A stretch of 64,000 nucleotides of DNA, taken from positions 3,095 to 67,094 of the forward strand of contig JAHKAP010000024.1 of NCBI GenBank assembly GCA_018825985.1. The letters are read 5' to 3'. Position 1 is the first letter of the stretch; every line of letters starts with the position of its first letter. Source of the DNA: Candidatus Omnitrophota bacterium (GTDB lineage: Bacteria; Omnitrophota; Gorgyraeia; Gygaellales; Profunditerraquicolaceae). The position numbers and the translations under genes were made by a program. The notes beneath the pieces are model-generated. The model saw nothing but the letters and a program-made list of their open reading frames with translations. It was not told where the DNA came from and ran no database searches. Below are positions 22,342 through 47,931 of this stretch, in pieces.

Positions 22342-22977
22342 CACTTATCTACCTGTTTTCCAAGTAGCGTGGACTATCTCTTCGCCCGATAATATACCGG
22401 GAGCCTGGCGTATTATAAGAAGCATAATTTTACCGTTGGTTTAACTCTCTAATCTTAGCCACCAGCTTCATCTTATCACTAAGCATCTTTGGAGTATATT
22501 TACCTGCTCGATGAGTCACAGATTTATACTTTTCTAATATCAAAGTTGCTTGTGGCTTCTTTACGATTAGATATTTAACTATTTCCCCGAGAAAGCATAA
22601 TGCCCTGTCTTGACGAACAGACCATGCAAAAGAATCATTATGTTGAGGTTTGTATTTTTTCTTTGAACAAACTAATCCTCCGCACCTATATTTAATCCAC
22701 TGCAAGAGTTTTAGATTATTATTTGCAATAGAAACATAGGGTATAGGAGTTTCATTCTTATGATGTTTCATAAGCGTTACTGTGCCCTCGCCATCAACAA
22801 TTCCTGCTAAATTAGCTTTCTCAGATTCTTCCAACGGTATCACCTCCTATCTCCTCAATTGAGGAAGTCTCTGCAGGGCTTTCACCCCTCAGGATTACCC
22901 TCGCATTTGCGTTTGGGTTTCCCTGATGTAAGCCAGGTTTTTCATTCCGGATTACTCCGGAAGTCGACCTTAATACT
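22342..22977 (-). mobile_element. group I intron (636 nt) inserted after the U of the tmRNA T-loop, carrying a homing endonuclease ORF
   Basis: Exon 1 ends in U paired to the G of an internal guide GUCGA (P1: UCGAU/GUCGA, 4 WC pairs plus the terminal U-G); intron ends with omega-G (AGAUAAGUG) just before the 3' exon; ~220 nt of core RNA plus a 414 nt ORF. Confidence 0.7.
22430..22843 (-). CDS. LAGLIDADG homing endonuclease (single-motif, 137 aa) encoded within the tmRNA group I intron
   Basis: N-terminal LAGIVDGEG motif (LAGLIDADG family); basic C-terminal half. Confidence 0.8.
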   Translation of the reverse strand: MIPLEESEKANLAGIVDGEGTVTLMKHHKNETPIPYVSIANNNLKLLQWIKYRCGGLVCSKKKYKPQHNDSFAWSVRQDRALCFLGEIVKYLIVKKPQATLILEKYKSVTHRAGKYTPKMLSDKMKLVAKIRELNQR

Positions 22978-23369
22978 GATCGAACCCGCGTCCCTAGATA
23001 ACTGAATAAAAGCCGCTACATGCTTAGCCCCGTATTTTTTGCTTACTACTGCAGCTCCTGCGGGGCAGGATTTGCAGTCCGCGGCCTTTTTGAATCTCGC
23101 TTCGGCCCCAAAGGCTAATTTACCAAAGCCAGCCTGCTTGGGCATCCTTTTACCTCGCAGGCTAAGATAAAAGGATGGCTTCGCTAAATTAGTTAGCGAA
23201 GGCTGGGACCAAACCCATACCCATGGGCATAGCCATAGGCGCTGGTTTAGTAAACGCTATTCTGTTATTTGCGTTTATATTGTGCAAGGATTATTAACGC
23301 GGCCAACCTTGCGTCCGCGGCATGCTGCCGTTACCCTAATCACCTAAGTCGAACCCTTTCACCCCCCTT

Positions 23370-40463: not shown

Positions 40464-40502
40464 TTTTTGTTTATTCCCTATTAAATACTTATCTTGTCGT
40501 GG

Positions 40503-40583
40503 AACAGTCCCCTGGCCAGCTTCAGCAGGGGACACCCTGCGAAGCAGAGTGTCCCCTGTAAACTTCTACGGGGACAGTCCCTA
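40503..40583. repeat. cluster of four family A palindromic repeat units (alternating orientation, nested hairpins) upstream of the DUF362 gene
   Basis: Units at 40505-40516, 40527-40538, 40548-40558 and 40570-40582. Confidence 0.7.
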
Positions 40584-40654
40584 CTGGCTATACTTGAGTT
40601 CACTCGGCGAGAATTCTCAGCGCGCGAGCAATACCCTTCGGCAAAATATCTATA

Positions 40655-41416
40655 CTACTTTATATTGAAAAACAGTTTAGCGTTGGCGGTAGTAGCCTTG
40701 GCTACTTCATCAACACTGATCCCTTTAATCCTGGCAATCTCTTCAGCCACAAATCTCACATTTACCGGTTCGTTTCTTTTGCCCCGCAAGCCTTCCGGGG
40801 ACAAATAAGGCCCGTCGGTCTCCAGGCAAATCCTATCCATAGGAGTGATCTTAACAATCTTCCGCAGTTTATCCGATTTTTTATAAGTAATATTACAGGT
40901 AAAAGAAACATAATAACCGAGCCTTAGACAATCATTTAAGAATTGTTCATCCCCGGAAAAACAATGCACGATTGCCTTAGAGACCATTTGAGTTTTCAGA
41001 ATAGCCAATGTATCTTCCTGGGCCTGGCGGCTATGCACAACCAGGGGAAGATTGCTTCCTTTAGCCAAATTAATTAATGATAAAAAGGCTTTTTTTTGGT
41101 TTTCTTTGGTAGATAAATTGCGGAAGTAGTCTAAGCCAACCTCTCCTATCGCTTTGACTTTTTTATTGGAAACTAAATCTTTAAGCCTATTCAGCATATC
41201 GGGCGAGAAATCATCAGCATCATGAGGGTGGCAGCCCACACAGGCAAAAATTGATTCATATTTAACGGCTAGTTCTTTTGCCCGGATTGAATTTTCCAGG
41301 CTTGAACCGACATTAATTATATAACCGATGCCTTGCTCCAAAGATCTACGGATGACTTCATCCCGGTCAATATCGTATTCGGGAAAGTCTAAATGGCAAT
41401 GAGTATCAATTAACAT
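40655..41416 (-). CDS. tatD: TatD family metal-dependent hydrolase / DNase
   Basis: MLIDTHCHLD N-terminus plus conserved His/Glu/Asp metal-ligand blocks. Confidence 0.85.
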   Translation of the reverse strand: MLIDTHCHLDFPEYDIDRDEVIRRSLEQGIGYIINVGSSLENSIRAKELAVKYESIFACVGCHPHDADDFSPDMLNRLKDLVSNKKVKAIGEVGLDYFRNLSTKENQKKAFLSLINLAKGSNLPLVVHSRQAQEDTLAILKTQMVSKAIVHCFSGDEQFLNDCLRLGYYVSFTCNITYKKSDKLRKIVKITPMDRICLETDGPYLSPEGLRGKRNEPVNVRFVAEEIARIKGISVDEVAKATTANAKLFFNIK

Positions 41417-43849: not shown

Positions 43850-44806
43850 TTAACTTTTTAAACTAAATTGTAAATTAGCCAAAAGTAATTTGGTGTTTAC
43901 ATTCTGTCCCAGGTACAATAATGAATCCGAGACCGCCTTCAGGATTACATCCAGGTCAAAAAATGAATAATGATTGGCCAGCCTTAAGATATCGCTCTTA
44001 CGGTCCAGGTGGATCATTTCTTCCTGGGGCTGACCGGATTTTACCAGGTATATATCCCTAATCCAACCTGCTAAAATATCCAGAGATCTGCGGATATCTT
44101 CTCTTTTATTTTCTGAATGATTTCCTGCGCTCCCCGCTTCCGCCGAGAACAAATCGTCTATAACCTGGTTTTTCTCTCTCAATATATCCCTATCCTTTAA
44201 ATACAAAGCCTTGCCAATGCTACCTTCGGAATAATAAGCCAGGAAGTGACCGGTCTGGGCATCAAGCCCGTAATCATTTATTAATGCCTCTTTTAATTCC
44301 TGCCTTTTTAAAGGATAGAACCTGATGATTTTACTGCGCGAGAGTATAGTTTTAAATAATAAACTTGGTTTAGCGCTGACCAGAATTATTAGGCTGTTTT
44401 TTGGCGGCTCTTCAAGGGTTTTTAGAAAAGCGTTGGAAGATTCTGGATTAAGGTCATGGGCATTATTTATTATAAATACCTTTTTCCTGGCTTCGTAAGG
44501 CCTTAAACTGATATCTCTTTGCAGCTGCCGGATGTAATCAATTTTTATCTCCGAGCCTAGAGCGTCAATTATTGAAATATCCGGGTGAACCCCTTTATCG
44601 ATCCTTGAGCACGATGGACAAATCCCGCAGGCATCGCTATTATTCTCCTGGCAATTCAGGGCCTTAGCCAATGTTTTCGCCGCCAGCATCTTGCCTATGC
44701 CATCTGGACCGCTGAAAATATAGGCCCCAAAAAGCGTATCCTGAATTATTCCCGACTTTAATAATTCTATTGTCCGGGAGTTACCTTTAATATCCTTAAA
44801 AGACAT
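43850..44806 (-). CDS. holB: DNA polymerase III subunit delta'
   Basis: AAA+ box FSGPDGIGK; zinc module CGICPSC. Confidence 0.8.
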   Translation of the reverse strand: MSFKDIKGNSRTIELLKSGIIQDTLFGAYIFSGPDGIGKMLAAKTLAKALNCQENNSDACGICPSCSRIDKGVHPDISIIDALGSEIKIDYIRQLQRDISLRPYEARKKVFIINNAHDLNPESSNAFLKTLEEPPKNSLIILVSAKPSLLFKTILSRSKIIRFYPLKRQELKEALINDYGLDAQTGHFLAYYSEGSIGKALYLKDRDILREKNQVIDDLFSAEAGSAGNHSENKREDIRRSLDILAGWIRDIYLVKSGQPQEEMIHLDRKSDILRLANHYSFFDLDVILKAVSDSLLYLGQNVNTKLLLANLQFSLKS

Positions 44807-45410
44807 ATTTATCGATCAATCCTCTAATATTGCTCTGGGTCTCGGATTTTTCTAAAGCGACTTTAACTATTTTGATCCTATTGGGCTCTTGTGCGGCTAA
44901 TTTTAAATATCCCTGTCTGACCCGGAAATGATAATTCAAAGTTCTTCTTTCAATCCGGTCTTTAACCCGGGAACGCACATTCAAACCTTTTTTAACCGGA
45001 AGATCCAGGAATACGGTTAAATCAGGCCTTATTCCGGAGGTAACCAAATCTCCGACATACCTAATAGTTTTGATATCCATGCCTAACCCATAGCCTTGAT
45101 AGGCAATAGTTGAATCCAGGAATCTGTCACAAATAACAATTTTTCCTTGTTTTAATGCTGGTTTAATGACCTGTTCAACGATTTGAGCCCGGGCAGACAT
45201 ATAAAGAAGCATTTCGCAAACCGAGGACATAGAATTATTCCTATGGTCCAGAAGGATCCGGCGGATCTTTTCACTGATTTTTGTTCCGCCAGGCTCGCGC
45301 AGGTAAACTATTTTTAAACCTTTGGCTCTCAAATATTGACAAAGCATCATAGACTGCGTACTCTTTCCGCACCCCTCAGAACCTTCAAATGTAATAAATT
45401 TGCCTTTCAT
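44796..45410 (-). CDS. tmk: thymidylate kinase
   Basis: P-loop FEGSEGCGKST; DRF/DRY motif DRFLDS. Confidence 0.9.
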   Translation of the reverse strand: MKGKFITFEGSEGCGKSTQSMMLCQYLRAKGLKIVYLREPGGTKISEKIRRILLDHRNNSMSSVCEMLLYMSARAQIVEQVIKPALKQGKIVICDRFLDSTIAYQGYGLGMDIKTIRYVGDLVTSGIRPDLTVFLDLPVKKGLNVRSRVKDRIERRTLNYHFRVRQGYLKLAAQEPNRIKIVKVALEKSETQSNIRGLIDKYVF

Positions 45411-45454
45411 ATCTTATCTCTTATGCATAATTTTAGGGTTTTGCACTCCGCGCG

Positions 45455-45676
45455 CTAACAATGATATGAATTTGTTAGATTTTCTCGCTCGGGTCGATTT
45501 CTTCACGCCAATGATCTTTCGCTTCTCGGCTCCTGCGCAACTCGTCCGTCGGCTCACCGCCAGGACGGACTCAAACATGCTCGTCGTCCGAATGTTTCCA
45601 CGTTCGGATACCCTCGTCGCTCAAGCTCCATTGGCTAAAATCGACACTCGCTGCGAAAACTAACAAATTCATATCA
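45455..45676. repeat. ~220 bp GC-rich element bounded by 17 bp terminal inverted repeats (tgatatgaatttgttag / ctaacaaattcatatca); MITE-like element or structured ncRNA
   Basis: TIRs at 45462-45478 and 45660-45676; interior is GC-rich in an AT-rich context with internal hairpins (gtccgtc...gacggac; tccgaa...ttcgga). Confidence 0.45.
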
Positions 45677-45713
45677 AAGAACCACCAAAATTACAACCAA
45701 CCTTCAACCTTTA

Positions 45714-46277
45714 CTATATTCCACCTTTTTTGTATGCGAATTTTAGTGCCTTTTCATTCCGAGCATGATAATCATCTATCCATTCCCATAAATCCTGTAA
45801 TCCTTTGTTAATTCCCCAAGAATCAAGGAAGAATACCGCTAAACCCTCTGGCTCACTAAAAATAGCATAACCTTTATACTTTATTTTATTTTTATTTTTA
45901 AGATGCGCACACTGCCTTCTAATATCATTTATAATCTTTATCTCTGATACTTCCGGCCTTGCCTGTTTCCATTTTTTTAGAATCGGCTTAAGTAATCGAA
46001 ATTTTTGCTCAAAATTTATACTCCCAATTGCTTCCCAAATTTCTTTCTCTACTTCATCAACATCCTTACTTGTTGTCCCTTTAGGTGTACCATAGGTCAA
46101 CAACTTATAAAGTATTTTATCTAATATTACTTCAGAATTATGATGAATTTCTAAAATTACAGATTTTATTACATGTTCTTTTTCAGATAATTCTGAACTC
46201 CAACTTCTAACATAATGAAGCACAGCGTTAGGATCATCTATATTTAGTATTTCACTTGCTTTAGGTCTTTTATCCAT
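45714..46277 (-). CDS. hypothetical protein (187 aa), AT-rich orphan ORF; possible HEPN-like Rx4H motif
   Basis: Clean ATG-to-stop ORF with lower GC than its neighbours; contains DIRRQCAHL (R-x4-H); no other recognisable motifs. Confidence 0.45.
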   Translation of the reverse strand: MDKRPKASEILNIDDPNAVLHYVRSWSSELSEKEHVIKSVILEIHHNSEVILDKILYKLLTYGTPKGTTSKDVDEVEKEIWEAIGSINFEQKFRLLKPILKKWKQARPEVSEIKIINDIRRQCAHLKNKNKIKYKGYAIFSEPEGLAVFFLDSWGINKGLQDLWEWIDDYHARNEKALKFAYKKGGI

Positions 46278-46294
46278 TTATAGATTAAATTTTA

Positions 46295-46450
46295 ATGAGC
46301 CTTGGCGGTTTCCGAACTAATGTCCTTAGCGGGTGACCAAAGGATGGCGGCGACTGGGAGGATCCACACCGGGCGGAGGGGCCCAGGAACTGCCTCCTTT
46401 GGGCAGGACCCGCTAATCATAGCGAGAAAATCCGACAAGGATCATTTAAA
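46295..46450. other. ~155 nt GC-rich structured island (candidate ncRNA or MITE) immediately 5' of the orphan ORF
   Basis: Extensive self-complementarity: UUAGCGGGU/ACCCGCUAA, CCAAAGGA/UCCUUUGG, closing stem CCUUGGCGG/CCGACAAGG; flanked by aatgagc direct repeats. Confidence 0.3.
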
Positions 46451-46474
46451 ATATCAATGAGCTTATTTTAAAAT

Positions 46475-46531
46475 CAGGGACAGTCCCCTGACCAGCCTTT
46501 GCATATAGCCATCTACGGGGACAGTCCCCTG
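46475..46531. repeat. two family A palindromic repeat units; the second encodes the C-terminus of CysS
   Basis: cagggacagtcccctg 46475-46490; cggggacagtcccctg 46516-46531. Confidence 0.7.
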
Positions 46532-47931
46532 CGTCTCCAGACTGTGCCATCCTTAGTGTCTTCTAAAATAATGCCCTTAGCTTCGAGGTCTTTACGGATC
46601 TTATCAGCCTCGGCAAAATTGCGTTCTTTCTTAGCTGTATTACGTTTATCAATCAAGGCTTTTTCTTCTGCCGATAAAGATTTATCCTCGCTGGTTTTCT
46701 TCCATTCTAAACCCAATATCCCGCTTAATTCAAATAGCAAATCTTTACCCTGACAGACAAAATCATAATCCTCAATATTCTTATTTAAGGTATTTACCAA
46801 TTCAAATATACAAGCTAAAGCCTGGGGCATATTAAAATCATCATCCATTGCTTCAATGAATTTATTTTCTAAACCACTTAATTCTCTGTTTAAACCCCAG
46901 GCTTTGCACCCTACGCCACATTTATCTATCTTGCCTAATAAAATCGATATTCTTTCCACCGCCTGCTCAGCTTCTTTTATCTTTTCTTCAGTATAATCAA
47001 CCGGATGGGAATAGTGGGTTGATAAGAATAAAAGTTTTAATAAGTTGGTGTTTTTGTGTTTATCCAGAAAATCCTGGACGGTGATGAAATTCCCTAAGGA
47101 TTTGGCCATTTTCTGGCTGTTGATGGTCAATAAGCCATGATGGATCCAATAACGGGCAAATTTCTTGCCCAGACCTTCGGACTGGGCTATCTCATTCTCA
47201 TGGTGAGGGAATATCAGGTCTACGCCTCCGCCGTGGATATCAAATTCATCGCCTAAAATATCCAAACTCATAACCGAACATTCGATATGCCAACCAGGCC
47301 TACCCTTTCCAAATGGGCTATCCCAGGACGGCTCATTCTCTTTAGCGGATTTCCACAACGCAAAATCCAGGGGATTACGTTTATTTTCAGCCGCGGAAAC
47401 TCTGACCCCTGATTCCATTTTATCCGGCGCCTGGTTGGATAATTTACCATAATTTTTAGCCTTGGTAATATCAAAATAAACATCTCCTGCGCAGACATAA
47501 GCAACCTGTTTGTCAACAAGGCCCTGGATAAAAACAATCATTTTGGATATATAGTCGCTGGCCTTGGGCTCAAAAATCTTATCCTGAGCCCTACCTATCC
47601 CTAAACTCTCCAAAGCCCGATGATAAAAAATAAGGTACTTATCCGCTACTTTTTTAAAAGCTGTATTTAAATCTTCACCGGGAAATTCTTTTCTGGCTTT
47701 ATCAATAATCTTATCATCGACATCCGTGACGTTGCGGACAAATATTACTTTATATCCCCTAAAGGCAAGATACCTGCGGATAACATCAAAAATATAAGCG
47801 CTGCGGGCATGTCCGATATGCGGTTGGTCATAAACCGTCGGGCCGCAAACATACATCTTTACTTCCTGCGGCCTTAAAGACTTAAACTCTTCTTTTCTGC
47901 GGGTAAGCGAATTGTATATATGTATAGGCAT
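46513..47931 (-). CDS. cysS: cysteinyl-tRNA synthetase
   Basis: HIGH (PHIGHARS) and KMSKS motifs, Zn-binding Cys; C-terminal RRGLSP tail comes from a family A repeat. Confidence 0.9.
   Translation of the reverse strand: MPIHIYNSLTRRKEEFKSLRPQEVKMYVCGPTVYDQPHIGHARSAYIFDVIRRYLAFRGYKVIFVRNVTDVDDKIIDKARKEFPGEDLNTAFKKVADKYLIFYHRALESLGIGRAQDKIFEPKASDYISKMIVFIQGLVDKQVAYVCAGDVYFDITKAKNYGKLSNQAPDKMESGVRVSAAENKRNPLDFALWKSAKENEPSWDSPFGKGRPGWHIECSVMSLDILGDEFDIHGGGVDLIFPHHENEIAQSEGLGKKFARYWIHHGLLTINSQKMAKSLGNFITVQDFLDKHKNTNLLKLLFLSTHYSHPVDYTEEKIKEAEQAVERISILLGKIDKCGVGCKAWGLNRELSGLENKFIEAMDDDFNMPQALACIFELVNTLNKNIEDYDFVCQGKDLLFELSGILGLEWKKTSEDKSLSAEEKALIDKRNTAKKERNFAEADKIRKDLEAKGIILEDTKDGTVWRRRGLSP

Follow-up and report, generated by a model that had tools for sequence, protein, structure and literature searches.

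A predicted HEPN-superfamily gene inserted among structured, repeat-like elements between cysS and tmk of a Candidatus Omnitrophota genome

The subject of this analysis is the 1.1-kb interval between cysS and tmk in a 64-kb stretch (64,000 nucleotides, called the window; coordinates given without a locus name refer to it) of a Candidatus Omnitrophota metagenome-assembled genome, and in particular the small gene ORF187 and the structured elements around it. The genes of the locus run on the minus strand in the order cysE, cysS, ORF187, tmk, holB, PSP1 and metG, with cysS (cysteinyl-tRNA synthetase, 46513-47931, minus strand) as the upstream and tmk (dTMP kinase, 44796-45410, minus strand) as the downstream flank of the interval, both assigned by open reading frame (ORF) and Pfam match. 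The locus is 100% identical across five NCBI assemblies and one Logan contig. Read from cysS towards tmk, the interval holds a pair of small palindromes (palA), a GC-rich hairpin called element (iii), ORF187, and a second GC-rich structured element called element (i). A preliminary description of this DNA had listed these four parts, and all of them are present where it placed them; its label (iv) stood for family A palindromes, which are called palA here, and element (iv) in this text denotes a separate, fourth element that is dispersed. Comparison loci carry L-numbers and homologous proteins P-numbers.

ORF187 (45714-46277, minus strand) encodes 187 aa and is predicted from its reading frame, profile searches and composition to be a solo HEPN-superfamily protein and RNase. 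As the preliminary description had noted, its GC content is low (31.6%, with 21.8% at third codon positions, versus about 40% and 40-44%, respectively, for cysS, tmk and holB), which marks the gene as recently acquired. A word-index search returned only four relatives of 52-67% identity, and an exhaustive profile search returned 79 cluster representatives, mostly of 180-210 aa. All family members that were looked up are metagenome proteins, and the family is metagenome-only; tblastn searches with ORF187 against plasmid and phage collections, and with the homologues P0009 and P0012 against plasmids, gave no match.

In an alignment of 46 members, H125 is the sole invariant residue, and R120, N121 and E49 are conserved at 90% or above, yielding the pattern I-N-x-x-R-N-x-x-A-H. 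Apart from the near-invariant E49, nothing outside this Rx4H motif is invariant or nearly so across the family. It corresponds in ORF187 to codons R120-R-Q-C-A-H125 (45903-45920, minus strand), inside the DIRRQCAHL stretch in which the preliminary description had suspected a HEPN motif, and reads RRQCAH, i.e. R-R where the family has R-N. Sub-threshold matches to the Pfam family PF18735 (HEPN_RiboL-PSP) were obtained for 21 of the 46 members, and others match HEPN_Apea, Abi_2 and HEPN_Swt1. In PADLOC, the 46 members match HEPN-bearing models exclusively (Csm6, Csx1, CARF_HEPN, Cas13a, RTasHEPN and AbiD). Among the sequences of the PDB the best match is Csm6 (6tug), whose catalytic HEPN motif RNKVAH aligns with the RNxxAH of the family, and on this alignment the HEPN guess holds. 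The AlphaFold2 model of ORF187 is all-alpha with a predicted local distance difference test score (pLDDT) of 95.7. By these comparisons ORF187 is a genuine gene of a small family predicted to belong to the HEPN superfamily.

We place this family, apparently a new one, nearest to the Ribo L-PSP-HEPN and AbiF/AbiD-like branch of the superfamily (PF18735; Anantharaman et al., 2013, PMC3710099), with which it has in common an all-alpha protein of about 190 aa, an R(N)xxxH motif aligned to the catalytic motif of Csm6, and homologues in defense-island and mobile contexts. Unlike that branch, ORF187 has no L-PSP fusion and no ParB neighbor, carries R-R in place of R-N and stands solo in a housekeeping operon. 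It is membership of this family that suggests an RNase activity and a role in defense.

The homologues occur in varied surroundings. P0004 (56% identical to ORF187) overlaps the 3' end of the gene for a 519-aa DUF5677 protein that matches the PADLOC model of DitA, a component of the Aditi system, with E = 1.5e-78; this DitA homologue is full-length, the pair is located at L003 4455-6567 and likewise in L004, and the island around P0004 contains a RES toxin gene, two serine recombinases and a type I restriction-modification system. Compared with Aditi (DitA/DitB; Millman et al., 2022, as cited in 10.1101/2024.10.26.620412 and PMC12926258), the likeness is the position of P0004 directly after a DitA homologue; on the other side, none of the 46 family members matches the PADLOC model of DitB, P0004 filling the place after DitA instead, the partners of the other homologues are unrelated, and no DitA adjoins ORF187 in the window, where its neighbors are cysS and tmk. 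P0002 is preceded by a gene for a 270-aa protein and P0003 by one for a 203-aa protein. A common upstream partner was considered and rejected, the 270-aa, 203-aa and DitA-like proteins being mutually unrelated. At the homologue loci L001-L005 the sequence in common with the window is coding DNA only, and elements (i) and (iii) were not found there with a covariance model or nhmmer; no CRISPR array was found beside the homologue in L001. The varied contexts and unrelated upstream partners lead us to read the family as a putative mobile effector of the defense-island type with variable partners, which appears solo in the window and, lacking the upstream partner gene that its homologues have, is possibly orphaned.

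To place the interval among related genomes, loci were collected by a metagenome scan with the cysteinyl-tRNA synthetase followed by look-ups of close dTMP-kinase relatives, giving about 20 loci with cysE-cysS-tmk-holB synteny. The order cysE-cysS-tmk-holB-PSP1 is kept in these roughly 20 relatives and ORF187 occurs in none of them, in agreement with the preliminary description, which had set the 1.1 kb apart from the conserved block. Spacers between cysS and tmk range from -4 to about 1400 bp, many of them 3-12 bp long, and in the closest relative, L214 (tmk 91% identical), there is no spacer at all, cysS and tmk overlapping by 4 nt. The 1.1-kb spacer is a lineage-specific insertion; ancestrally, cysS abutted tmk or overlapped it.

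The comparison with L212 (tmk 89% identical) delimits what was inserted, the two spacers having only two borders in common. On the cysS side this is AAATAAGCTCATTGATATTTT (46448-46468, minus strand), 21/21 identical to L212 3790-3810. Its AAA TAA ends cysS in L212, which identifies 46448-46468 as the displaced 3' end of the ancestral cysS; in the window the shared AAATAA now lies 45 nt past the cysS stop, indicating that the palindrome pair was inserted into the last cysS codons and changed the ...WRRK(L) of relatives into ...WRRRGLSP. On the tmk side the common sequence covers 82 nt upstream of and into tmk with 86.6% identity, its upstream region being 45411-45457 (minus strand). The first bases of this region, AGCGCGCGGAG, are the 3' end of a complete copy of element (iv) in L212, so that the window retains a remnant of (iv) here. 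Between these borders the window has 990 bp, consisting of (iii), ORF187 and (i), and L212 has 1145 bp of other content, consisting of a GC-rich element termed elL, a 231-aa membrane-type ORF and element (iv).

Other relatives carry other genes in this slot. The cargo of L222 (8885-9912) is a DUF4145 gene (HEPN clan, 1.6e-17) and a 118-aa ORF, flanked by (iv) and an elL-like element on a contig that looks frameshift-rich; hhalign of the ORF187 family against this DUF4145 protein gave a probability of 0.6% and was uninformative. The membrane-type ORF of L212 (4074-4769) has no Pfam match, and in L137 (about 1260-1700) the slot holds a small ORF whose N-terminus resembles that of type IV pilins. 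Every cargo gene in the cysS-tmk slot is co-oriented with the operon. Two Logan contigs of close relatives, L215 and L213, end 30-65 nt upstream of tmk within repeat sequence, consistent with assembly breaks caused by multi-copy elements.

Element (i) (45458-45680, minus strand) is a structured element of about 220 nt. The 17-bp terminal inverted repeat given in the preliminary description is perfect (45462-45478 / 45660-45676) and widens to 39 nt at 79%; it forms the long closing stem of an architecture that further comprises helices P2 and P3 and two to three internal hairpins. Fold z-scores against shuffled sequences are -6.0 for the plus and -4.4 for the minus strand. Homologues of (i) are present in the cysS-tmk spacers of three relatives that lack ORF187: L136 (4771-5003; tmk 67% identical to the window), L218 (9536-9777; tmk 74% identical to the window) and L221 (9497-9718, on the opposite strand; tmk 89% identical to L218). 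Each of the four sequences folds on its own by minimum free energy into the same architecture, with z-scores down to -10.5, and the structure of (i) is conserved. The sequence of the terminal repeat is conserved in part only, outer-stem positions 12-20 varying from genome to genome and the partner arm changing to match. A protein-coding origin was rejected on the grounds that a 2-nt indel puts the genomes out of frame with one another and that the substitutions are compensatory for the stems; none of 10 spurious ORFs across (i) has a counterpart in the protein collection. The cysS stop codon is also where the closing stem begins in L136, L218 and L221, reading TAAAATGAA (stop, then ATG); this may either serve as a coupling signal or result incidentally from the conserved arm. 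Short ORFs of the form M-(K/N)-x-x-(L/I/V)-F begin at TAAAATGAA (L136 4775-4830, L218 9540-9595, L221 9500-9560; compare window 45670-45570, minus strand).

The model of (i) has no further match in about 220 kb of Omnitrophota DNA and none in 0.75 Mb of unrelated DNA, and (i) is missing from the nearest relatives (L212, L214 and L217), which have a dispersed repeat or nothing in its place. The 16-base pattern TTGTNNGATTTTCTCGCT, run over 596 Gb of genome contigs, hit 120 loci, all of them chance matches in unrelated taxa, the pattern being too short. Four scans of viral contigs with motifs of (i) and (iii) gave nothing relevant; one match, L216, is coding DNA on a high-GC contig. A GAGGAAAUCCG string in (i), recalling CR-I of RNase P, was judged coincidental.

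Element (iii) is a long GC-rich hairpin of 174 nt at about 46283-46456 (fold z-scores -5.0 for the plus and -6.2 for the minus strand), ending 5 nt ahead of the start codon of ORF187. The preliminary description was right about the strong self-complementarity and about the flanking repeats, which are present as AAATTTTAATGAGC / AAATATCAATGAGC, and its span of about 155 nt (46295-46450) has to be extended. The basal stem and an asymmetric internal loop (TTAGCGGGT GAC ... GCAGG ACCCGCTAA) are common to (iii) and a hairpin that fills the spacer after cysS in L141, a locus without ORF187; relative to cysS, the L141 hairpin has the opposite orientation. No second copy of (iii) was found in the window or the comparison loci. 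The AATGAGC repeats were rejected as a target-site duplication of (iii) because the copy on the cysS side lies within the sequence common to L212 and was thus not made at insertion. The outer arm of (iii) (46421-46438, minus strand) repeats, in inverted orientation, the 3' arm of (i) (45472-45489, plus strand), the two matching at 16 of 18 nt (89%) and forming the left and right terminal inverted repeats of the 990-bp block. Read from the sequence, there is no target-site duplication at the ends of either (i) or the block.

The remaining elements are dispersed. palA (46470-46535) consists of two GGGACAGTCCCCTG units 41 nt apart (46477-46490 and 46518-46531) and is a small dispersed REP-like repeat at the 3' end of cysS; the palindromes were correctly recognized in the preliminary description, which had assigned them to the intergenic spacer, and the second unit falls within the cysS reading frame as it now stands. 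Against an expectation of 0.03, the window contains 3 sites of the core palindrome. Further palA copies are found in L217 (822-881, just after the cysS stop) and at 40501-40581 in the window, and not in L212 or L214. The latter copy is part of a second repeat cluster (40500-40660), with palA units at about 40504-40520 and 40565-40582 and a partial (iv)/elL copy at 40542-40653. Element (iv) is represented in the window by the terminal remnant upstream of tmk and the partial copy near 40.5 kb only; L212 has a fragment and, within a 5-kb stretch, two full copies of opposite orientation, and copies also exist in L133, L217, L218, L221 and L222. Element (iv), elL and palA reach at least two copies per contig. 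Between L218 (9536-9996) and L221 (9497-9987), each of (i) and (iv) has turned round at its own position, element order and flanking genes staying collinear, pointing to flip-flop recombination between the arms of each element. The RNA-like elements are independent of ORF187. Hairpin families of their own, GC-rich and with second copies within a few kb, were seen in L132 (1495-1600 and 3308-3388) and L220 (2905-3013 and 191-294), and GC-rich hairpin repeats seem to be common to these genomes in general.

The preliminary description had taken GC islands in an AT-rich genome as a sign of structured RNA. With 41.9% GC the window is only moderately AT-rich, so that the contrast is overstated, and stretches of 80 nt with 56% GC or more are common within its coding DNA, (i) and (iii) having mean values of 50-52% and 100-nt peaks of 58-63%. 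At gathering score, an Rfam scan of the whole window returned only a tmRNA and 3 tRNAs, and Rfam 15 at E <= 10 over 45300-46700, L218 9450-10050 and L136 4700-5100 gave nothing relevant, only chance fragments of snoRNA, miRNA and xrRNA models. With no Rfam match for either GC island, identities as 6S, signal recognition particle or RNase P RNA, which the preliminary description had raised, were rejected.

We consider it probable, with room for doubt, that the interval is an insertion hot spot of structured ERIC/MITE/REP-like repeats in which a horizontally acquired solo HEPN gene has landed, and that it is not a dedicated RNA-protein module. The hot spot would be the cysS-tmk junction within the compact housekeeping operon cysE-cysS-tmk-holB-PSP1-metG, a gap that would have been colonized in several lineages by GC-rich self-complementary elements with long inverted arms, namely (i), (iii), (iv), elL and palA. 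Of these, at least (iv), part of elL and palA are dispersed repeats present several times per genome, and all of them may be read as ERIC/MITE/REP-like, selfish and probably co-transcribed with the operon. A 606-bp AT-rich segment with a single gene, running in the direction of the operon, would have entered between (iii) and (i). In an ORF187 dimer, two Rx4H motifs would come together in an endoribonuclease site that needs no metal, as in other HEPN proteins, and the protein might act as an RNase of the defense or toxin type, cleaving cellular or invader RNA upon activation; as a solo, possibly orphaned effector it would be expressed by read-through of the operon.

The repeats resemble the ERIC/IRU, Correia, RUP/BOX and MITE-like families (PMC3184786) in a length of 100-240 nt, long inverted arms, a location in presumably transcribed gaps just after stop codons, occurrence in either orientation, several families per genome and, for (iv), elL and palA, multiple copies. 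The terminal inverted repeats that characterize MITEs are present, both in (i) and at the ends of the 990-bp block. Unlike those families, the spacer elements are GC-richer than the genome, (i) and (iii) are found at one locus only, and no target-site duplication accompanies them; a literature search gave no description of ERIC/MITE-like families in Omnitrophota. palA shares with the REP/GTAG-tagged palindromes mobilized by RAYT (Di Nocera et al., 2013, PMC3733652) the short G+C palindrome (GGGGACnGTCCCC), the arrangement in pairs, the position at or inside gene 3' ends and a GTAG beside one unit, and differs from them in that only 3-4 units were seen.

Several observations weigh against this reading. 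All Pfam HEPN matches of the 46 family members stay under the gathering score (the best, to PF18735, reaching 27.0 versus 28.4 bits), and ORF187 itself has no Pfam match at E <= 10. Both (i) and (iii) are single in each genome fragment and always lie in the cysS-tmk spacer in the approximately 220 kb of Omnitrophota DNA, so that their dispersed or selfish status rests on analogy with (iv) and palA. The match between the terminal inverted repeats of the 990-bp block, reached in 0 of 1000 shuffles, is left unexplained by it. In (i), 65 pairs are paired in 97.6% of cells over the four sequences and 20 of them show changes on both sides, in an alignment that is model-fitted, two of the four sequences having built the model and L218 and L221 being independent; 0 of 500 shuffles reach these values, and slid controls are about 40% paired. 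The sense strand of (i) folds 8-20 kcal/mol better than its complement and has more G than C in four of four copies, including the flipped one, and helices P2 and P3 contain an invariant tandem G.A/A.G; the covarying pairs, this tandem and a strand asymmetry that travels with the element are features of a functional RNA.

The observations on (i) speak for an alternative that we regard as possible, if doubtful: (i) may represent a previously undescribed structured RNA some 220-240 nt long, either a small RNA gene or a 3'-untranslated or intercistronic regulator of cysS-tmk, vertically inherited and lost in some lineages. It differs from the hot-spot reading on (i) only and is compatible with it for ORF187, the HEPN gene having merely landed beside the RNA. 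Apart from the pairing statistics, the strand asymmetry and the tandem G.A/A.G, it draws support from the presence of all four instances in the cysS-tmk spacer, with the closing stem at the cysS stop codon in three, from the common architecture of the single-sequence folds and from the silence of the model in unrelated DNA. However, the inversion of (i) in L221 with respect to L218 is hard to square with a cis-acting operon RNA, the element is missing from the three nearest relatives, unpaired positions are not more conserved than paired ones (53% versus 62% invariant), gene conversion from arm to arm of a palindrome, or template switching, can mimic covariation, and no conserved promoter was seen at (i).

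The repeats at the block ends keep alive a second alternative, on which (iii), ORF187 and (i) would form a composite mobile cassette of 990 bp that moves as one and landed in a resident copy of (iv). Its ends would be imperfect terminal inverted repeats of about 26-30 nt (AATGAT N2-6 TTGTYRGATTTTCTCGCT), recognized by a transposase or recombinase acting in trans. The block has genuine inverted repeats at its ends, occupies the place of (iv) in L212, and is the exact difference from L212 between the shared borders, the right border being the 3' end of (iv); the nearest relatives lack (i) and distant ones have it, and the uniform orientation of the cargo genes fits as well. We nevertheless judge such a cassette unlikely: the block ends show no target-site duplication, neither the block nor (i) nor (iii) has a second copy in the 64 kb or the comparison loci, (i) occurs by itself at the same locus in three genomes without ORF187, the homologues of ORF187 are not flanked by such elements, and no transposase was identified at the locus, the rest of the window not having been scanned for one.

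More speculative still is the idea, to which we give little credence, that the spacer hairpins are not junk, (i) being a new Omnitrophota-specific class of structured RNA or a recombination site for single-stranded DNA that, with (iii), (iv) and elL, possibly marks an integron-like cassette-capture slot, into which accessory genes without promoters of their own, in two cases HEPN nucleases, would enter in a single orientation, to be expressed from the housekeeping operon. If so, the in-place flipping and the inverted-repeat boundary of the block would be footprints of the recombination mechanism. Like integron cassettes, the slot holds promoterless, co-oriented small ORFs of varied function, each adjoining a palindrome that is imperfect, conserved at its base and variable at its center. 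In contrast to attC sites, the spacer elements are longer, the RYYYAAC / GTTRRRY pair is missing at the ends of (iii) (GCTCATT / AATGAGC, 5/7), and (i) has GTTAGAT / ATCTAAC in reversed order and in the window only, the pair not being kept in L136, L218 and L221; nor was an integrase identified, no search aimed at intI having been made.

The abiF RNA motif, reportedly described by Weinberg and colleagues in 2017, is said to lie upstream of AbiF (HEPN) genes. A toxin-antitoxin-like RNA-protein module of the ToxIN or abiF-motif/AbiF kind, as proposed in the preliminary description, in which a transcript of (iii) or (i) would bind or be processed by the HEPN RNase and keep it inactive, is very improbable: the structured non-coding element immediately upstream of a small HEPN-type gene, (iii), is so close to the start codon that it must belong to the ORF187 5' leader, ORF187 lacks the upstream protein partner of its homologues and HEPN families near AbiF are its closest relatives, but none of the homologues has (iii) or (i) nearby, so that no RNA association is conserved across the family, (iii)-like elements and (i) exist without ORF187, a repeat search over 45400-46600 found no tandem repeats in the leader, and there is no Rfam match, including abiF, ToxI and retron msr. 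The retron-like variant of the same proposal fails as well, ORF187 being the sole ORF of at least 100 aa between cysS and tmk, so that the 1.1 kb holds no reverse transcriptase gene, and the Rfam scan having returned no retron RNA.

Elsewhere in the window, the tmRNA (22977-23359, minus strand) scores 118.7 bits in Rfam with both ends of the acceptor stem outside the alignment, and ARAGORN makes no tmRNA call; its form may be permuted, two-piece or divergent.

If ORF187 is an active RNase, a small uncharacterized family of about 80 metagenome sequence clusters would join the HEPN repertoire of defense and toxin proteins. Through this family a HEPN effector would also be linked to DitA of Aditi, a system whose mechanism is listed as unknown, and whose proteins are given without domain-family assignment, in the reviews consulted. 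Element (i) is a well-supported structured motif absent from Rfam and fit for inclusion in RNA-motif surveys, be it a functional RNA or an ERIC-like selfish element. For the annotation of the little-studied Omnitrophota genomes, such repeats are worth knowing as places of spurious ORFs and contig breaks. For the organisms themselves, the locus would mean that a compact operon of essential genes in Omnitrophota tolerates the repeated colonization of one junction by structured repeats and accessory genes.

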